Of a DNA stretch of 64,000 bases, positions 19,411 to 61,440 are shown piece by piece. This stretch comes from Tissierellia bacterium (GTDB lineage: Bacteria; Bacillota; Clostridia; Tissierellales; Peptoniphilaceae). The notes under the pieces are model-generated. The model had not been told where the DNA came from. It worked only from the letters and a program-made list of their open reading frames with translations, and made no database searches. A program made the position numbers and the translations under genes. The stretch spans positions 967 through 64,966 of the forward strand of contig JAAYFG010000055.1 in assembly GCA_012728335.1 (NCBI GenBank), written 5' to 3'. How positions within the stretch are numbered: the first letter of the stretch is position 1; each line of letters starts with the position of its first letter.

Positions 19411-21144
19411 ATGCTAAAGGAAATGTGGAAAAAAGAGATATCTAGAAGAAAGTTTTTACAGGCATCAGGATTGGCGGCTACTTCATTAGTACTTCTAAAA
19501 GGCTATGAAAAGCTAACAGAAGACGAAGTAAGAGTTGTTAATAGTCCAGATGCACAAACTTATATTCCAGAAGATGTAGATAAACTTTATACATCATGTT
19601 ATATGTGTGCTATAAACTGTGGTGCTGTTGGTGTTGTAAATAAAGATGGAACAGTTAAGAGAATTGAACCTAATAAAAATGACCCAGTAAGCGGTGGAGC
19701 ACTATGTGCAAAGGGTAATGCTGGTATTGATCAGTTATATGATGAAGACCGTTTAAAAACACCTATGAGAAAAATTGGTGAACATGAATGGGAACAAATT
19801 TCTTGGGATGAAGCATTCGATACCATGTACGATCAATTTACTAGAATCGCATCTGAACACGGACCTGAAACAGTAGTTGGATTAAACCGTAGAGGTTACT
19901 ATACAAGCTACTTAAAAGGCTGGTTACGTACTTATGGTTCGCCAAATGGACCATTGGGACAAGCTAGTATCTGTGATGGTGGAAAGAGAATTGCTCAACA
20001 AATAGCAGTAGGAGCTTCTGGTTTATACTGTGACTTCAAGAATTCAAAATACATTATGTTACTTGGAGCTAACCAATTCGAAGCACCAAGATACAGACTT
20101 GGAATGATAGACGATATACTTACTGCTCAAGAAAATGGAGCTAAATTAATCGTAATCGATCCTAGATTTAACTATACAGCATCAAAAGCTGATGAATTTC
20201 ATCCAATTACGCCAGGGACTGACGGATTATTCCTTCTTTCAATGTGCCATGTAATTGCAAAAAATGGAATGGAAGATTCAGACTTCATTGCGAATCATTC
20301 AGCTGGTTATGAAGAATTTAAAAATGAAATACTACAAGATAAATATGCACCTAGAAATGTAGAAGCTGAAGTAGGAATTAGTGCTGATGACATTGAGAGA
20401 ATGGCGATTGAATTTGCTAGTGCAGAAGGCGCAATTGCTGATACTTCTAGTGGTTTAATCATGTATCAAAGTGGAACGGTATCTGACTGGGCGCTATTAA
20501 ATCTAGTTGCTATGACAGGTAATATGTTAAACAAAGGTGGAATTGTTAAAAAGGCAGGAGCTAAAACTAGCGGACCTAAGTTTGAAGTAGACAATTCTAA
20601 AGATAAAGAAGCATTTGCTAAGTATTTAGGATATGTTTCTTATGAAGGTGGAACTGAAAATGGTAATAGAAATATTATTGCCGACTGTATATTAAATCCA
20701 GAAGCAGTGCCGACTGGACCTAGAGTTGCTGAAGATACCCTTAGCCTTTATGGTGGAAAAGGTATTAAGTCAATAATAGTATATAACACAGAACCAATAG
20801 GAGCACAATCAGACTCTACAAGACTAAAAGAAGCTTTTAATGCTTTAGAATTTGGAGTAGTTGTAGATATATATCTTTCTCAAACTGCAGAAGCAATGCC
20901 AGTGGGAAGTTTAGCATTGCCTGAGTGTACTTATTTAGAAAGATACTCTGTAAGAAGTGCAAATGCATATACTCCAGTTCTAAATATTAACCAACCATTA
21001 ACTGAGCCTATGTGGGAATCTAAAACAGGTTATTGGATATTCTCTAAATTAGGACAAAGATTTGGTTATGAAGAATTTGCAGATTTTGATCCAGAGGATG
21101 ATTTGGGACAAGCAATTGCATCTGTTGAAAATGCAGATCAATGA
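19411..21144 (+). CDS. Tat-signal molybdopterin (bis-MGD) oxidoreductase catalytic subunit, N-terminal 577 codons ending at an in-frame TGA
   Basis: Twin-arginine signal ISRRKFLQASGLAATSLVLL. FS0 cluster motif C63-x2-C66-x3-C70...C99. Candidate Mo-ligand Cys188 (SICDGG). Same reading frame as 21145..21771. Confidence 0.8.
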   Translation: MLKEMWKKEISRRKFLQASGLAATSLVLLKGYEKLTEDEVRVVNSPDAQTYIPEDVDKLYTSCYMCAINCGAVGVVNKDGTVKRIEPNKNDPVSGGALCAKGNAGIDQLYDEDRLKTPMRKIGEHEWEQISWDEAFDTMYDQFTRIASEHGPETVVGLNRRGYYTSYLKGWLRTYGSPNGPLGQASICDGGKRIAQQIAVGASGLYCDFKNSKYIMLLGANQFEAPRYRLGMIDDILTAQENGAKLIVIDPRFNYTASKADEFHPITPGTDGLFLLSMCHVIAKNGMEDSDFIANHSAGYEEFKNEILQDKYAPRNVEAEVGISADDIERMAIEFASAEGAIADTSSGLIMYQSGTVSDWALLNLVAMTGNMLNKGGIVKKAGAKTSGPKFEVDNSKDKEAFAKYLGYVSYEGGTENGNRNIIADCILNPEAVPTGPRVAEDTLSLYGGKGIKSIIVYNTEPIGAQSDSTRLKEAFNALEFGVVVDIYLSQTAEAMPVGSLALPECTYLERYSVRSANAYTPVLNINQPLTEPMWESKTGYWIFSKLGQRFGYEEFADFDPEDDLGQAIASVENADQ

Positions 21145-21771
21145 GATGGTCTTAAAGTTGCTTGGGACGAATTGCTTGAAAATGGAACATGGTTTAAGAA
21201 AGATGCTGAAGCTAGAGATTACGAAAACTATACAAAAGTATTCCCTAACGAAAAGTATCGTTTTGCATTTGTTGGTGATGATATTAATGATGACCATAAA
21301 ATGTTCTTAAGTGTGGGTGGAGAAGCATTTCCAACTTACTTAAAGCCATTAGAACTTACAGATGAGTTCCCATTGAGATTTATGGCTGGTGGTAAAGTTA
21401 TGTGGCACACACAAACTTCTACTAGAAATAATAAATACTTAATGCAAACTTTCGACTCTAATGTAATAGTTAAAGATACTAACTATATAGTTATGAGTGT
21501 TGCAGATGCAGCGGAAAGAGGACTTGAGTCTGGAGATATAGCTACAATAACTTCTCCAATAAATTCATTGGAAACAGAAGTATTAGTTACAGAAAGAATG
21601 CCGAAAGGTTATGTTCATATGACTCACGGATTCGGCCATGATGCTCCATCTCAAAAACTTGCAAATGGTGTAGGGGCTAACTGTTCACAATTGACTGATA
21701 CTCATAGAATAGACCTTTATTCAAATTGCTTTACAGCAAAAGAGGAAATATGTAATGTTGCAAGAGCTTAA
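21145..21771 (+). CDS. C-terminal molybdopterin-dinucleotide-binding domain portion of the same oxidoreductase, in frame after TGA 21142-21144
   Basis: Frame continues DGLKVAWDELLENGTWF... with no stop. First possible restart is TTG 21172, which has no SD. Domain-IV-like content (PLRFMAGGKVMWHTQTS..., MPKGYVHMTHGFGH). Confidence 0.7.
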   Translation, partial: DGLKVAWDELLENGTWFKKDAEARDYENYTKVFPNEKYRFAFVGDDINDDHKMFLSVGGEAFPTYLKPLELTDEFPLRFMAGGKVMWHTQTSTRNNKYLMQTFDSNVIVKDTNYIVMSVADAAERGLESGDIATITSPINSLETEVLVTERMPKGYVHMTHGFGHDAPSQKLANGVGANCSQLTDTHRIDLYSNCFTAKEEICNVARA

Positions 21772-22937: not shown

Positions 22938-23007
22938 GTTATAATGTAGCTTTTAACATTAATATAAGCTATATTATATATATACAAAACTAAATATAGA
23001 CAAAATT

Positions 23008-23146
23008 GTATCCGAGCTGTATTTCCTAAAGGGAAACCCATGGAAACCAGCCTGAACTTTTAGTTCACAGGGTTATTTGAGAAATTGAATGGCCTTCCGA
23101 TTTGAAAAGGACACAAAGTAGTCATTATCCGTCATAGAGCCGGAGT
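23008..23146 (+). promoter_or_regulatory. Molybdenum cofactor (Moco RNA motif) riboswitch aptamer
   Basis: P1 halves UCCGAGCU (23011-) and AGAGCCGGA (-23144). Conserved GGCCUUCCGAUUUGAAAAGGAC core closely resembles the Moco motif core as I recall it from E. coli moaA. Located upstream of modA. Confidence 0.7.
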
Positions 23147-32461: not shown

Positions 32462-33481
32462 ATGGATAGTTTTTTTAAGAGAAAGAATATTTCTCTAAGT
32501 CTAAAAGTATATTTTATTGATGCAATGGGTGCAATGGCATATGGATTGTTTGCATCATTGTTAGTAGGGACTATATTAAACACCATAGGTGGGCAGCTAA
32601 ATATTGCCTTCCTAACTGATGTATTATGGCCAGTAGCACAAGAGGGAACTGGAGCGGCAATGGCAGTTGCAATTGCGTACGCATTAAAGGCTCCAGATTT
32701 AGTTATGTTTTCGTCAACTATAGTGGGGATTGCCAGCTATAAACTTGGTGGTCCAATGGGAACTTTCATAGCGACTATATTTGCTGTAGAGATGGGAAAG
32801 ATGATATCTAAAGAGACGAAATTAGACATCATTCTTACTCCGTCATTGACTATATTAGTTGGAGTAATTATTTCAACATTTTTAGGACCAAGTATTAATT
32901 ACATAATGGTCACATTGGGAAATATAATCATGGCAGCAACTACTAGAACTCCTTTTATAATGAGCATTATAGTTTCTGTCATAGTTGGTTTGGTATTGAC
33001 TTCTCCGATGTCATCGGCGGCACTGTGTATGATGCTTTCATTGTCTGGATTAGCTGGTGGAGCAGCGACTATAGGATGTTGTGCTCAGATGGTGGGATTT
33101 GCAGCAATATCTTATAAGGATAACAACTTTGAGAACACTATGGCAATAGGAATAGGTTCAAGTATGTTTCAAATGCCAAATATTGTGAAGAACTGGAAAG
33201 TATTAATACCACCAACATTGTCAGCGGCTATTATTGCTCCAATTGGCACAATTCTATTTAAAATGGAAAACACACCCCTTGGTTCAGGAATGGGAACATC
33301 CGGTCTTGTAGGGCAAATAGGAACGTATAATGCCATGCTTGAGAGCCGCGGTGGAGGAGAAATACTAATGGCTATACTTTTATTACATATAGTATTGCCG
33401 ATAGCAATATCGCTTATTACATATAAGATAATGATGAAAAAGGGATACATAGCAAAGGGAGACTTAACACTAAAAAATTAA
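32462..33481 (+). CDS. Polytopic membrane protein, PTS EIIC-2-like family (tentative)
   Basis: About 340 aa, Gly/Ala-rich TM segments. GGGAGGG SD precedes ATG 32462. The family assignment is from memory only. Confidence 0.4.
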   Translation: MDSFFKRKNISLSLKVYFIDAMGAMAYGLFASLLVGTILNTIGGQLNIAFLTDVLWPVAQEGTGAAMAVAIAYALKAPDLVMFSSTIVGIASYKLGGPMGTFIATIFAVEMGKMISKETKLDIILTPSLTILVGVIISTFLGPSINYIMVTLGNIIMAATTRTPFIMSIIVSVIVGLVLTSPMSSAALCMMLSLSGLAGGAATIGCCAQMVGFAAISYKDNNFENTMAIGIGSSMFQMPNIVKNWKVLIPPTLSAAIIAPIGTILFKMENTPLGSGMGTSGLVGQIGTYNAMLESRGGGEILMAILLLHIVLPIAISLITYKIMMKKGYIAKGDLTLKN

Positions 33482-33576
33482 GAAAAGTCTGAAAGAAAGT
33501 TTTTCTTTGAAAATTGGAGAATTTTGTGTTTCTAAGTTCTCAAATTTTATTTAAAAATGAGTATATTTATAGTTTC

Positions 33577-33679
33577 TTGAAGGAGAGTGAAGGGAGTTGC
33601 GGTTCTCTCTCATACCCTCCTTCAAACATCCTCAATTAAATACATCAATGATTATCTATCCAAGAAAACTAATAGATAG
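33577..33679 (+). repeat. Structured repeat unit A: purine/pyrimidine-armed hairpin (33577-33625) plus AT hairpin (33653-33679)
   Basis: Outer stem TTGAAGGAG / CTCCTTCAA (9 bp, perfect). Downstream TATCTAT...ATAGATA hairpin. The flank ATCAAtGATTATCTATCCAAG is shared with unit C. Confidence 0.7.
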
Positions 33680-33748
33680 CAGATTAAAAACTACCATATA
33701 TAATCAAAATAATACTATTCCAAAATGTATGAAATTCATATGGTTTAA

Positions 33749-33829
33749 ATGTTTTAGCGTGGAAGGGTTGAAGAGAGAGTTTGAGAGAGAAAAAAGGGAA
33801 CCTACGCAAGTTCCCTTATCTCTCTCAAA
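33749..33829 (+). repeat. Structured repeat unit B (A/T-variant hairpin 33780-33829)
   Basis: TTTGAGAGAGA-aaaaa-GGGAAC-CTACGCAA-GTTCCC-tta-TCTCTCTCAAA. 5' flank GTTTTAGCGTG is shared with units C-E. Confidence 0.75.
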
Positions 33830-34036
33830 TAAGATATATGAGAAGTAGAGCTTTAACTTGTATATCGTGCATTAACACAGTTTAGTATGTAAAATATAAC
33901 ACAGTTTAGTATATAAAATATAATGCATTCAGTATTTTAATGGTTTTAAAGATTTTAGCGTGTGAGGGTGCTATAGGGGGAGTTTGAGGGGGAGAGGGGG
34001 ACCCTACGCAAGGTCCCTGCTTCCCCCTTAAGTAAA
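33800..34036 (+). repeat. Long direct repeat, copy 1 (contains an extra internal 24-nt tandem duplication)
   Basis: Near-identical to 34235-34445 except for the insertion GTAAAATATAACACAGTTTAGTAT and a few substitutions. Confidence 0.8.
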
Positions 34037-34086
34037 TATATCAAAGATTATCTATCCAAGGAAACCAATAGATTTCAAATATTTTT
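33931..34086 (+). ncRNA. Candidate small RNA (paralog 1) containing repeat unit C
   Basis: Promoter-like ATAACA (33896-33901) - 17 nt - TATAAT (33919-33924). Two hairpins followed by a U-rich stretch around 34081-34086. Purely predictive. Confidence 0.2.
33953..34075 (+). repeat. Structured repeat unit C (G/C-variant hairpin 33986-34029 plus AT hairpin 34050-34073)
   Basis: GAGGGGGAG-agg-GGGACC-CTACGCAA-GGTCCC-tg-CTTCCCCCT. Same loop as unit B, with both stems changed in a compensatory way. Confidence 0.75.
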
Positions 34087-34185
34087 ACTTCTACTCTCTA
34101 AGGACTTAAAATCAAAGTGAAAACTATAAAACCTTTGACTCTTGAAAAACACTATGCAAATAAAGGTTTTAGTGTTTTAAAGATT

Positions 34186-34262
34186 TTAGCATGTGAGGGT
34201 GCTATAGGGGGAGTTTGAGGGGGAGAGAGGGACCCTACGCAAGTTCCCTTATCTCTCTCAAA
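34186..34262 (+). repeat. Structured repeat unit D (chimeric: C-type 5' arm with B-type 3' arm)
   Basis: GAGGGGGAGAGAGGGACC-CTACGCAA-GTTCCCTTATCTCTCTC. Arms can still pair on the plus-strand RNA mainly through G-U wobbles. Confidence 0.7.
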
Positions 34263-34445
34263 TAAGATATCTGAGAAGTAGAGCTTTAACTTGTATATCG
34301 TGCATTAACACAGTTTAGTATATAAAATATAATGCATTCAGTATTTTAATGGTTTTAAGGTTTTAGCGTGTGAGGGTGCTATAGGGGGAGTTTGAGGGGG
34401 AGAGAGGGACCCTACGCAAGGTCCCTGCTTCCCCCTTAAGTAAAT
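34235..34445 (+). repeat. Long direct repeat, copy 2
   Basis: Aligns by eye with 33800-34036 from CTACGCAAGTTCCCTTATCTCTCTC through CTTCCCCCTTAAGTAAAT. Confidence 0.8.
34364..34440 (+). repeat. Structured repeat unit E (G/C-variant, near-identical to unit C)
   Basis: TTTTAGCGTGTGAGGGTGCTATAGGGGGAGTTTGAGGGGGAGAGAGGGACCCTACGCAAGGTCCCTGCTTCCCCCTTAAG. Confidence 0.75.
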
Positions 34446-34476
34446 TCATCATAAAATAACAACATACCAACAAAAC

Positions 34477-34514
34477 AAAAAGTGGACTACCAAAAGGCAA
34501 TCCACTTTTTATTT
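34477..34514. terminator. Bidirectional Rho-independent terminator
   Basis: AAAAAGTGGA - 14-nt loop - TCCACTTTTT, with A-run and T-run on either side. Abuts the stop of the minus-strand ABC gene. Confidence 0.8.
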
Positions 34515-36286
34515 TATTCGTTCATATCCCCAAAGCTTCTCTTATAAAGATTAGCATATAATCCATCACTTTTTAGAAGTTCATCATGTGTACCCATTTC
34601 TTGAATACCATCTTCTGTAAGAACTATGATTCTATTGGCATCCATAATTGTAGAAAGTCTGTGGGCAATAGTAAGAGTAGTTCTTCCTTTAGCTAATTCT
34701 TCTAGTGAATTTTGTATAAGTCTTTCACTCTTATTATCAAGAGCAGAAGTTGCTTCATCAAGAATTAGTATTGGAGGATTCTTTAAGAATACTCTAGCAA
34801 TACTGATTCTTTGTTTTTGACCTCCTGAAAGTCTAAGGCCACGTTCTCCAACGTAAGTGTCATAACCCTCTGGAAGTTTATCTATAAATTCGTCTGCTCC
34901 TGCTAGTTTTGCAGCAGCTATGACATCCTCAAGTGATGCACCAGGTTTACCATATGCAATATTTTCATATACAGTTCCAGAGAATAGATAGACATCTTGT
35001 TGTACCATACCAATATTTGAACGTAGACTTTTAATCTGCAAGTCCCTAATATCAGTTCCGTCTATAGAAATGGCACCTTCAGTTACATCATAGAATCTAG
35101 GAATTAAATTGCTTATTGTAGTTTTACCACCACCGGATGGACCAACTAGTGCAATATTTTCACCAGGCTTTATCTCAATATCAATGTCCTTTAAGACATA
35201 ATCATCTGAACTGTCATATTTGAAAGATACATTATCAAATAAGATATGACCTTTAACATCAGTAAGTTCCTTGGCATCTTCAGAATCAAAGATATCTATG
35301 TCCGTATCCATTAATTCCACGAATCTTTCAATTCCAGTCATACCTTTGTGGAAGTTTTCAGTAAATTCAACTATTCTTCTAACAGTGTTTAAAAGAGTAG
35401 TAACAAATAGTACATATGCAACCAAGTCACCAGGTAATATACTTCCATTTACCATGAAGATACCACCGAAAAGTATTACAGTAACATACATCAAACCATC
35501 AAATATTCTAGTAACAGAGTGGAACATAGATAAGTTTTTGTATGTGTCTCTCTTGATATCTAGGAATTCGTCATTTTCTTCTTGGAATCTAGCTATTTCA
35601 TAATCTTCATTGGCAAAACTCTTTACGACTCTAACTCCAAGTAATGTATCTTCAATGCTTGCATTTATATCACCAATGTGATTACGTTGTTTTCTAAAAG
35701 TCTTTCTAACTCTACGATTGATTTTAGAAGCACTGAAAATCATAATTGGAATCATAAAGTAAATTATAAGAGTTAGTGGAATGTTTATATTAATCAGAAT
35801 TATAAACGACACTACTATTTTTATAAATCCTATGAAGTATTCTTCAGGGCAATGATGAGCAAATTCTGTTACATCAAATAAGTCATTGGTGATTCTGCTC
35901 ATTATCTGTCCAACTTTAGTTTTGTTATAAAATGAGTCCGAAAGATTTTGAAGATGATTAAAAGCATCTCTTCTCATATCAGTTTCAATCATAGCTCCCA
36001 TTACATGACCTATATTGTTCATATAGTAGTTTGCAATGATATCTACTACTTTAAGGATTAAATATAGACCTGAAATCAATAAGATAACTTGGATACTAAG
36101 GGCTTCTGGGTTTTCTATGCCCGTATTTGTCAGATATCTAAGTATCATCGGAAGTATCATTTCATTTATAGTAGTTAACATCGCACAGAATAAGTCTATG
36201 AATAATGTAGTTTTATACTTGTAGAAATAAGGTATAAATCGCTGTAAGAGTTCTCTTGTCGTGTATTTTTTGTTTTTTGTGATAAT
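34514..36286 (-). CDS. ABC exporter (MsbA-like fused TMD-NBD). Probable non-canonical ATT/ATC start; the canonical-start ORF is 34514..36181.
   Basis: Walker A GPSGGGKTT, signature LSGGQKQR, Walker B LILDEATS. The 35 in-frame codons upstream of ATG 36181 encode a typical exporter N-terminus (KKYTTRELLQRFIPYFYKYKTTLFIDLFCA). They sit behind a perfect AGGAGG, but the only candidate starts are ATT (36286) and ATC (36283). Confidence 0.75.
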   Translation of the reverse strand: MITKNKKYTTRELLQRFIPYFYKYKTTLFIDLFCAMLTTINEMILPMILRYLTNTGIENPEALSIQVILLISGLYLILKVVDIIANYYMNNIGHVMGAMIETDMRRDAFNHLQNLSDSFYNKTKVGQIMSRITNDLFDVTEFAHHCPEEYFIGFIKIVVSFIILININIPLTLIIYFMIPIMIFSASKINRRVRKTFRKQRNHIGDINASIEDTLLGVRVVKSFANEDYEIARFQEENDEFLDIKRDTYKNLSMFHSVTRIFDGLMYVTVILFGGIFMVNGSILPGDLVAYVLFVTTLLNTVRRIVEFTENFHKGMTGIERFVELMDTDIDIFDSEDAKELTDVKGHILFDNVSFKYDSSDDYVLKDIDIEIKPGENIALVGPSGGGKTTISNLIPRFYDVTEGAISIDGTDIRDLQIKSLRSNIGMVQQDVYLFSGTVYENIAYGKPGASLEDVIAAAKLAGADEFIDKLPEGYDTYVGERGLRLSGGQKQRISIARVFLKNPPILILDEATSALDNKSERLIQNSLEELAKGRTTLTIAHRLSTIMDANRIIVLTEDGIQEMGTHDELLKSDGLYANLYKRSFGDMNE

Positions 36287-43624: not shown

Positions 43625-43712
43625 CATTTTACTTTGAAATTTGTGGAGAAAAGTATATAATAAAGGGTATATATTTTATAGCAGTACATTTGAGCTATGA
43701 TAGGGTGTGGTT

Positions 43713-44057
43713 ATGAAGATAAAACGAGGAGATTTATACTATGCCGATCTCAGCCCAGTTATAGGTTCTGAACAAGGCGGAGTAAGACCAGTCGTCATAG
43801 TTCAGAATGATATAGGGAATAAATATAGTCCCACTACGATAGTAGCAGCAATAACGTCTCAATTAAATAAACCTAAACTACCTACTCATGTTCCAATTTC
43901 AGCTCAAAAATATGGACTGCCTAAAAATTCAGTAGTACTCACTGAACAACTGAGAACTGTTGATAAAAAAAGACTAAGAGAAAAACTAGGTAGCGCAGAT
44001 GAAGAATTTATGAAGAGAATTGATGATGCTATAAAGACTAGTGTGGGATTGAAGTAA
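43713..44057 (+). CDS. mazF: MazF/EndoA (PemK family) endoribonuclease toxin
   Basis: [47 protein letters not shown] is close to the EndoA/MazF consensus. 114-116 aa. Confidence 0.88.
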
Positions 44058-61280: not shown

Positions 61281-61308
61281 ATAAAAAACTTCATAATATT
61301 TATGAAGT
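61281..61308 (-). terminator. TPP riboswitch expression-platform terminator
   Basis: Minus-strand RNA ACUUCAUAA-aua-UUAUGAAGU followed by UUUUUAUUU. Confidence 0.8.
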
Positions 61309-61320
61309 ATGTTTGATAAA

Positions 61321-61400
61321 CATCCCTACGTCAGCATTATCTGTATCAGGTTCAAAGGGTACTGGACTTATCCATCTCAGCCATAATAGGCGCCCCTGTA
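61321..61400 (-). promoter_or_regulatory. TPP (THI-box) riboswitch
   Basis: Minus-strand sequence CAGGGGCGCC...GCUGAGAUGG...ACCCUUUGAACCUGAUACAGAUAAUGCUGACGUAGGGA carries the conserved CUGAGA and ACCUGAU...GCGUAGGGA elements. Confidence 0.9.
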
Positions 61401-61440
61401 TGTATTTAATTGTCAGCAATAGATTAATATTACTTTAACT

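Follow-up and report, generated by a model that had tools for sequence, protein, structure and literature searches.

A 64,000-nt stretch of chromosomal DNA from an uncultured Tissierellia bacterium (contig JAAYFG010000055.1, positions 967 to 64,966; hereafter the window) carries, between two convergent genes, five GC-rich hairpin units that together form a real, selected, strand-specific structured element. From sequence comparison we propose, with about even confidence, that this array is a lineage-restricted set of sibling small-RNA (sRNA) genes with their own promoters. What points to such genes is conservation from promoter to hairpin and strand-specific compensatory pairing, together with the absence of a conserved open reading frame (ORF), the absence of a match in Rfam, confinement to one locus and the lack of mobility genes. 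The gap that holds the units is, as a preliminary description of this DNA had remarked, unusually long for convergent genes: it measures 1,032 bp (33482-34513) and separates the end of a PTS_EIIC_2 gene of the phosphotransferase system (PTS) at 33481 on the plus strand from the end of an ATP-binding cassette (ABC) exporter gene at 34514 on the minus strand.

The five hairpins reported in this gap are all present (Table 1; primes denote units of L002, a related contig described below). Each is built in two parts, and three types occur among the five units. In type 1 (B and B′) the outer arms are GAGAGAGA/TCTCTCTC (as RNA, GAGAGAGA/UCUCUCUC) and the inner arms GGGAAC/GTTCCC; in type 2 (C, E and C′) they are GAGGGGGA/TCCCCCT (as RNA, UCCCCCU) and GGGACC/GGTCCC; type 3 (A), on the opposite strand, has the arms AAGGAGGG/CCCUCCUU. 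The arm sequences quoted in the preliminary description for A, B, C and E proved correct, as did the loop CTACGCAA common to units B-E, which also have in common the decamer TTTTAGCRTG upstream of the hairpin. A 20-nt hairpin core is found four times in the window, always in the gap, versus no copy in 100 shuffles, and an 18-nt leader motif likewise has four copies, all in the gap, versus about none in shuffles. Units are spaced 177-231 bp apart, and types 1 and 2 are neighbors in a conserved pair. One segment of ~410-430 bp is duplicated, as B-spacer-C and as D-spacer-E, so the five units do not represent five independent copies. A tail of 55 bp follows both A and C, and the promoter region of C contains a 24-bp tandem duplication (33873-96 and 33897-920) carrying TAACACAGTTTAGTAT.

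Table 1. Features of the hairpin array in window coordinates.
Feature	Position	Strand	Details
Unit A, type 3, truncated, inverted	33576..33633	-	profile and covariance-model match; hairpin 33576-33626
Tail module copy 1, with ATCTAT...ATAGAT at 33654-33677	33630..33684	+	direct repeat of the tail after C, 84% identity
Unit B, type 1	33740..33839	+	leader TTTTAGCGTG at 33752-61; homopurine mirror repeat 33771-91
Unit B hairpin	33780..33829	+	outer stem TTTGAGAGAGA/TCTCTCTCAAA, inner stem AAGGGAAC/GTTCCCTT, loop CTACGCAA at 33802-09
Promoter module of C	33873..33924	+	-35 ATAACA at 33896-901, -10 TATAAT at 33919-24
Unit C, type 2	33927..34041	+	predicted start ~33931; leader TTTAATGG...TTTTAGCGTGTGAGGGTG; mirror repeat 33975-93
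Unit C hairpin	33983..34032	+	outer stem TTTGAGGGGGAG/TTCCCCCTTAAG (three G·U pairs), inner stem GGGGACC/GGTCCCT, loop at 34004-11
Tail module copy 2, with ATCTAT...ATAGAT at 34050-73	34026..34080	+	repeat comparison
Unit D, recombinant	34161..34272	+	hairpin 34214-34262; loop at 34235-42; junction in CCTACGCAAG at 34234-43
Promoter module of E	34305..34333	+	TTAACA, 17-nt spacer, TATAAT (11/12); conserved in L002
Unit E, type 2	34336..34449	+	mirror repeat 34383-401; hairpin 34391-34440; loop at 34412-19
Bidirectional intrinsic terminator	34472..34515	both	hairpin between an A-run and a T-run

Two metagenome contigs from ENA, L002 and L003, share this locus. L002 is 90% identical to the window in coding DNA and has a gap of 814 bp with three units (A′, B′ and C′) and a stub; L003, whose PTS gene is 99.1% identical to that of the window, contains unit A, the tail and the start of B, where the contig ends. 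Comparison of the window with L002 shows that the sequence of the units is under purifying selection. The closest counterpart of E is C′, with 2 differences in 115 aligned bases, compared with 4 in 115 between C and C′ and 3 in 80 between B and B′. Over the orthologous units (E/C′ and B/B′), 2.6% of sites differ (5/195), versus 13.5% (33/245) in four spacer segments of the gap and 29.6% (92/311; range 27-32%) at the four-fold sites of the two flanking genes (Fisher test, p = 3e-5 for units against spacers and p = 1e-16 for units against four-fold sites). Had the whole locus been transferred recently, units and spacers would not differ in this way. Conservation sets in at the -10 box and stops at the base of the hairpin, with ~60 nt of conserved sequence upstream of the palindrome that take in the nonpalindromic leader and the -10 box. 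As each type is conserved between the window and L002, both types must be old and separately maintained.

The case for structure rests on comparison between the types and not on folding energy, since the fold z-scores of single units are modest (-1.0 to -4.7). MAFFT alone mis-registered the low-complexity arms; we used an N-padded, structure-guided alignment of the eight distinct units, fitted to the scored structure of 12 outer and 7 inner pairs. In this alignment 94% of cells are paired and 8 of the 19 pairs change on both sides, which bears out the compensatory stem changes noted earlier. None of 500 shuffles reached the observed covariation score, and when the partners were slid by 1-3 columns pairing dropped to 40-68%. 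The register of the outer helix is fixed by an invariant TTTG, and outer pairs 6, 7, 9 and 11 each alternate between A-U and G-C across the three types. Because one arm consists of purines only and the other of pyrimidines only, any transition gives either G·U or A·C, and 15 cells are G·U versus 2 that are A·C (p = 0.002 on cells); the three G·U pairs of type 2 would all be mismatches on the opposite strand. This pattern favors selection on a single folded strand (the plus strand in B-E, the minus strand in A), and the asymmetry speaks against a cruciform or template-switch origin, under which the two strands should fare equally. A further helix in the leader (P1) was rejected, as each of the three types would use another part of one conserved strand for pairing.

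Unit A had been described as a fifth unit in the same orientation as the others, which turned out to be wrong: an nhmmer profile of B-E matches A only on the minus strand. The match in the window covers the hairpin half only (33633-33572, E = 5e-3), while that to A′ in L002 extends over nearly the whole model, including the leader (1297-1185, minus strand, E = 3e-5). The covariance model scores unit A at 55.5 bits on the minus strand versus 29.7 on the plus strand, a difference that is partly there by construction. Read on the minus strand, A consists of the purine-block remnant GAGGATG, TTTG, the outer arm AAGGAGGG, the inner arm GAGAGAG, the loop AACCGCAA and the pyrimidine arms. Its full-length counterpart A′ (L002 1185-1297, minus strand) follows the same plan as the other units, with the leader TTTAATGGTTTT ... 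TTTAAGCGTTTGTAGGGTG, the purine block AAGGGAGGATG, TTTG, the outer arm AAGGAGGG, the inner arm GAGGGAG, the loop AATCGCAA and then the pyrimidine arms CTCCCTT and CCCTCCTT, and has a folding energy of -44.9 kcal/mol (z -4.2). The window and L003 have the tail module in place of A's leader and promoter, as well as mismatches in the stem, and there this unit looks like a decaying remnant. The loop of A resembles the reverse complement of the B-E loop because A is inverted; a role for it as a kissing partner of the B-E loops was rejected, the complementarity coming from the inversion instead.

Unit D, on which the preliminary description gave no details, is a chimera of the two plus-strand types, in the type-2 state up to 34233 (GGGACC) and in the type-1 state from 34243 (GTTCCC). 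The junction lies within 10 shared bases, CCTACGCAAG, that is, in the invariant loop region. As every assembler k-mer is longer than ten bases, a chimera made during assembly is unlikely. Pairing is largely kept on the plus strand, with two G·U pairs and one C·U mismatch, and that strand folds at -30.8 kcal/mol, whereas the minus strand loses the hairpin. No good promoter was found upstream of D.

Transcription signals were found for part of the array. The sigma-A-type promoters proposed earlier for C and E exist as promoter-like sites (33896-33924, 10/12 matches; 34305-34333, 11/12 matches), at a frequency that is not above that in shuffles, and TATAAT is equidistant from the unit in C, E and C′. 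On its own strand A′ has the promoter-like TTGCAA-18-AATAAT with an upstream TG, divergent from the B′ promoter. The terminator sequence noted after E is a bidirectional hairpin of -13.3 kcal/mol (z -4.7) that could end unit E transcripts on the plus strand and ABC exporter transcripts on the minus strand, and L002 has its counterpart. The AT hairpin ATCTAT...ATAGAT does follow A and C, but it is unstable and thermodynamically insignificant (-3 kcal/mol, z +1.6) and was rejected as a terminator. The unit hairpins were likewise rejected as intrinsic terminators, as none of them precedes a T-run on the plus strand and B alone was flagged, on its minus strand. Transcripts of 150-175 nt, as first predicted, are plausible only for E; C is without a credible terminator and B without any. 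The conserved -35 region contains ACAGTT(T/A/C)AG (window 33873-33920 and 34306-34329; L002 1345-1370 and 1545-1570), which we take to fit the 9-bp consensus of the LytTR/AgrA-type response-regulator box. The box ACAGTTNAG was nonetheless rejected as a LytTR/AgrA-type site, with one box per promoter except in C, where the box is duplicated with a 24-bp period and the spacing is wrong, and no LytTR regulator in the window.

If the units are sRNA genes, an intact one would comprise a sigma-A-type promoter, a conserved leader of ~45 nt (UUUAAUGGUUUU ... UUUAGCGUG ... AGGGUG), a single-stranded purine block, UUUG, and a two-part hairpin of ~12 + 7 bp, its 5′ arm rich in purines and its 3′ arm rich in pyrimidines, closed by an 8-nt loop that has an invariant CGCAA at its end. 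Transcription would start from the units' own promoters, with the RNA of E ending at the shared terminator (~175 nt) and possible read-through from B into C. The RNAs may act in trans through their exposed conserved parts, namely the CGCAA of the loop, the leader and the free purine block, either by base-pairing with pyrimidine-rich RNA targets or by protein binding, and specificity would be set by the type-specific arms. Recombination between units would shift their copy number. The array would then be a small, fast-rearranging set of paralogous structured sRNA genes in one Tissierellia lineage. Should transcription be confirmed, this would be a new structured sRNA family in Tissierellia, a group of poorly studied, mostly uncultured anaerobic Firmicutes, and a compact case of how sibling sRNAs originate, with duplication, inversion, recombination and decay at one locus; the covarying, type-specific purine and pyrimidine blocks suggest a simple specificity code. 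Its narrow distribution and the lack of a cultured host are practical limits.

A number of observations weigh against this proposal. The region contains six promoter-like matches versus 5.1 expected from shuffles of such AT-rich DNA, a credible terminator exists for E only, and the unit hairpin has no U-tract on the plus strand. The pyrimidine-rich segments with a likeness to known sRNA seeds are sequestered in a long stem, and when four unit segments were compared by duplex energy with the 70 translation-start regions of the window, no target rose above shuffled controls. On the structural side, the inner-helix register of type 3 is ambiguous and the alignment is fitted to the structure; the support comes from three paralog types in three closely related genomes and hence from few independent events, and the excess of G·U over A·C, counted as independent events, is ~7 to 2 (p = 0.18). 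Finally, a recombinant junction in the loop and a variable copy number would also suit an element that acts at the DNA level.

Most likely, the family is new and its kind familiar. The whole-window scan with Rfam 15 agrees with the preliminary description that the element belongs to no known RNA family, as only the molybdenum cofactor (Moco) and thiamine pyrophosphate (TPP) riboswitches pass the gathering score. Between 33400 and 34600, at E values up to 10, there are 37 weak matches, the best reaching 12-26 bits against gathering scores of 43-229, and the LhrC and csRNA families are not among these 37. Tandem sibling sRNAs are an established pattern (PMC4211561), of which LhrC1-5 is an example from Firmicutes (PMC5880928). 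Like LhrC1-5 of Listeria and the csRNAs of Streptococcus, the array consists of several homologous units of ~100 nt in tandem in one intergenic region of a Firmicute (PMC5880928, PMC4211561), with an apparent promoter for each unit, a copy number and arrangement that vary among relatives, and purine- and pyrimidine-rich motifs related to the Shine-Dalgarno region. In LhrC, however, single-stranded CU-rich motifs occupy a loop, a linker and the loop of the terminator (PMC5880928), whereas here the pyrimidine tracts are paired and the purine tract is exposed. The single-stranded UCCC seeds of LhrC and the csRNAs have no equivalent in the array: the pyrimidine tracts are 3′ stem arms in every predicted fold and the loop is CUACGCAA. 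Promoter-like sites precede C, E and A′, and a terminator follows E only. The element is not a member of the LhrC or csRNA families. The likeness of the 5′ and 3′ arms to Shine-Dalgarno and anti-Shine-Dalgarno sequences, which had been noted for the units in general, holds for unit A (AAGGAGG/CCUCCUU) but not for the other types, GAGAGAGA and GGGGGAG not being Shine-Dalgarno sequences; the C-rich arms also sit in stems, unlike the loop position in known anti-Shine-Dalgarno sRNAs. RsaI of Staphylococcus aureus and RosA of Bacillus subtilis are sRNAs with G-rich tracts that bind C-rich sRNAs. The exposed G-rich purine tract of the units could similarly pair with UCCC-type sRNA seeds or with pyrimidine-rich mRNA, but type 1 has GAGAGAG and no G-tract.

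Other explanations account for parts of the same evidence. The array could be a locally amplified palindromic DNA repeat of the repetitive extragenic palindrome (REP), BOX or miniature inverted-repeat transposable element (MITE) kind, its compensatory changes produced by palindrome correction at the DNA level or by gene conversion, and we regard this as unlikely. As in REP/BIME and BOX elements, GC-rich imperfect palindromes lie in an AT-rich gap between convergent genes, in both orientations given that one unit is inverted, and in a copy number that varies (five units in the window versus three in L002); the recombinant D, the patchwork of shared variants in C, D and E, and the faster divergence of the gap than of third codon positions when the window is compared with L003 would all fit. 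Unlike such repeats, however, the array occupies a single locus in 64 kb, and apart from chance matches its core was not found in 185,579 species genomes, JGI metagenomes or IMG/VR. Among all ORFs of at least 110 aa in the 64-kb window there are no transposase, integrase, recombinase, reverse transcriptase, Cas or LytTR domains, no RAYT-type gene, HUH nuclease or plasmid replication gene was found there, and no flanking target duplications or terminal repeats were seen beyond the hairpin itself. A DNA repeat would also leave the long, conserved nonpalindromic leader of ~60 nt reaching the -10 box with its promoter unaccounted for, and neither the strand-specific wobble (15 G·U to 2 A·C), unexpected from cruciform or template-switch correction, nor strong purifying selection that keeps the units far better conserved than neutral sites is what such repeats would show. 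A similarly small chance falls to cis-acting RNA hairpins that are not independent genes and that stabilize or insulate read-through transcripts of the PTS gene or form a barrier between the convergent transcription units. Strong hairpins such as REP elements protect 3′ ends, no convincing intrinsic terminator follows the PTS gene, and B-E are sense-oriented in a PTS read-through transcript; yet leader and loop are conserved in sequence, beyond what pairing needs, three diverged types are each kept across lineages, one unit faces the opposite way, and relatives with 72-85% protein identity carry no such hairpins at this place, which is taken up by four protein genes or by different neighbors.

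The position of the junction in D, within 10 invariant bases that are too short for ordinary homologous recombination, raises a further alternative, namely a folded single-stranded DNA, triplex or H-DNA-type element that serves as a recombination or replication site with strand exchange at the hairpin tip. A circle made of the right half of B, the spacer and the left half of C, if inserted into a type-2 loop, would give D-spacer-E, and the purine block, TTT and purine arm form a homopurine mirror repeat (9/9, 8/9 and 8/9 matches). We nevertheless find such a site very improbable: genes for a recombinase, an HUH nuclease or an integrase are not present in the 64 kb, the arms differ by type whereas recognition by a protein would require constant ones, a crossover in the one shared block can also come from gene conversion between units of ~80% identity, and the conserved promoter and leader would remain unexplained. 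Least credible of all, to the point of being nearly negligible, is that the units encode small proteins. Overlapping ORFs of 83 aa (33597-33848, plus strand) and 45 aa (34363-34500, minus strand) exist, and unit A has on its minus strand an ORF of 20-22 aa preceded by an AGGAGG-like sequence, but frames, starts and stops vary between the paralogs and between the window and L002, indels between C and E shift the frame, a search of 5.8 billion proteins gave no relative of the 45-aa ORF that overlaps unit E, and the stem substitutions are compensatory and not synonymous.

Irrespective of whether the units are sRNA genes, the purine block upstream of the stem, which is single-stranded and varies with the type, deserves a separate look. 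Together with the purine arm it forms a mirror repeat centered on TTT: AAGAGAGAG TTT GAGAGAGAA in type 1, TAGGGGGAG TTT GAGGGGGAG in type 2 and GGGAGGATG TTT GAAGGAGGG in type 3. The mirror matches number 9/9, 8/9 and 8/9 in types 1-3, versus 7, 8 and 6 in the best direct alignment, and exceed those in shuffles of the left block (p about 0.01-0.03 each). Three strands thus covary: the free block (R1), the purine arm (R2) and the pyrimidine arm (Y). Four positions change jointly in all three, from G·G-C to A·A-U, with one U·A-U, and R1 could also serve as an alternative partner of Y, seven or eight pairs being possible in every type. A homopurine mirror repeat is the sequence requirement of intramolecular R·R-Y (purine-motif) triplexes (PMC4689454, PMC11667243), and at the sequence level the units have what H-DNA and triplexes need, namely a homopurine-homopyrimidine tract, mirror symmetry and a short centre. 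They resemble H-DNA motifs in that a homopurine mirror repeat with a 3-nt centre lies beside a complementary pyrimidine strand and in that the strands covary as G·G-C, A·A-T and T·A-T triads require; they differ in arms of 8-9 nt only and in a pyrimidine partner that lies on the same strand, as a hairpin arm. We know of no established purine-motif triplex made of RNA. A natural three-strand fold, be it a purine-motif triplex in RNA or in the displaced nontemplate DNA, or else a switch in which R1 and R2 exchange as partners of Y, may underlie this pattern, although we would give it little credence. Types 1 and 2 cannot separate a triplex from alternative pairing because their blocks are self-mirror; type 3 leans slightly toward the mirror reading. 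A triplex or two-state switch, if true, would be a new architecture for a bacterial noncoding element, and the three-way covariation makes the units a concrete, testable candidate for an unusual fold.

Several further known systems were considered and rejected. Integron attC sites need R″/R′ cores (RYYYAAC ... GTTRRRY), whereas the stem feet here read TTTGAG / CTCAAA or CTTAAG; the spacers also contain no ORFs and there is no integrase in the window. The single-strand origin ssoA is characterized by the CS-6 motif TAGCGT in a hairpin loop, an RSB element and a plasmid rep gene; TAGCGT is present in the leader of B, C and E, but there is no plasmid match by blastn and no replication gene in the window. 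A G-quadruplex was dismissed because four G-tracts occur in type 2 only and type 1 has none such, a retron msr/msd because the UUAGCG motif is not accompanied by a reverse transcriptase, and a CsrA sponge because the counts of GGA motifs are inconsistent across the types.

Beyond L002 and L003 the array was not encountered. The nearest other species (L004-L009), with 72% identity in the PTS protein and 85% in the ABC protein, have four protein genes between these two (for example L004 7106-10077), encoding a DUF454 protein, a 208-aa hypothetical protein, a catalase and a Fur-family regulator; profile and covariance-model scans found no hairpins at the syntenic loci of relatives. Still more distant genomes have different neighbors beside the ABC gene. 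The differing gene content among relatives marks the site as a synteny break point and confines the element to one narrow lineage. At this site an oxidative-stress cassette has been swapped for the repeat array, or vice versa. An exact-pattern search for the hairpin core gave one chance match, in a gammaproteobacterial metagenome-assembled genome (MAG) of 65% GC, among the 185,579 species genomes and none in IMG/VR, and a gapped leader-plus-loop pattern had seven matches in JGI metagenomes, none with arms and all due to chance; being tied to the loop and inner stem of B-E, the exact patterns would miss divergent and type-3-like units. The whole gap had no blastn match among phages and 72,556 plasmids, profile, covariance-model and pattern searches found no further copies elsewhere in the window, and exact look-ups of the neighboring proteins for further strains returned no record.

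Window 33442-33810 and L003 1141-1509 are only 92.7% identical in the intergenic part even though the PTS gene is 99.1% identical, with 27/369 differences in the gap versus 7/340 at third codon positions (p = 0.001). Part of this divergence is a cluster of changes at 33515-33545, and the excess suggests either an exchange of alleles or sequence errors in a contig covered 3x. At L003 1480-1511 a run of 13 A stands in place of the outer purine arm of B, next to a type-2 inner stem; as the contig ends inside the hairpin, misassembly may be the cause.

The genes around the array are ordinary. The PTS EIIC protein (32462-33481, plus strand; PTS_EIIC_2) is identical to NLY20475.1 of a Tissierellia bacterium MAG. 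On either side of it and the ABC exporter lie genes for Moco synthesis, with a Moco riboswitch upstream, TatC and MobB, as well as an aldo-keto reductase, MatE, pyrF, MazF, enzymes for cell-envelope sugars and, preceded by a TPP riboswitch, a thiamine-related transporter. Both riboswitches are ordinary and correctly placed, the Moco riboswitch (22998-23128, plus strand) upstream of a molybdate transporter and moa/moe genes and the TPP riboswitch (61305-61407, minus strand) upstream of an energy-coupling factor (ECF)/ABC-type transporter with an NMT1/THI5-like gene. In the molybdopterin oxidoreductase gene (19411-21771, plus strand), a single in-frame TGA at 21142-21144 splits the coding sequence between the Molybdopterin and Molydop_binding domains into two ORFs that share one frame; the codon may encode selenocysteine, in an unusual position, or be a site of read-through, the mark of a pseudogene or an error of sequencing. 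NCBI annotates the ABC exporter with 589 aa, from a start region at 36182-36283 (minus strand) in which the annotated start is an Ile codon 34 codons upstream of the first ATG, GTG or TTG; starting there yields 555 aa, and relatives have 584-592 aa. A MazF/PemK-type toxin gene (43707-44057, plus strand) lies 3′ of an ACPS / NAD(P)HX dehydratase fusion gene, an arrangement also seen in the relatives L017 and L018.

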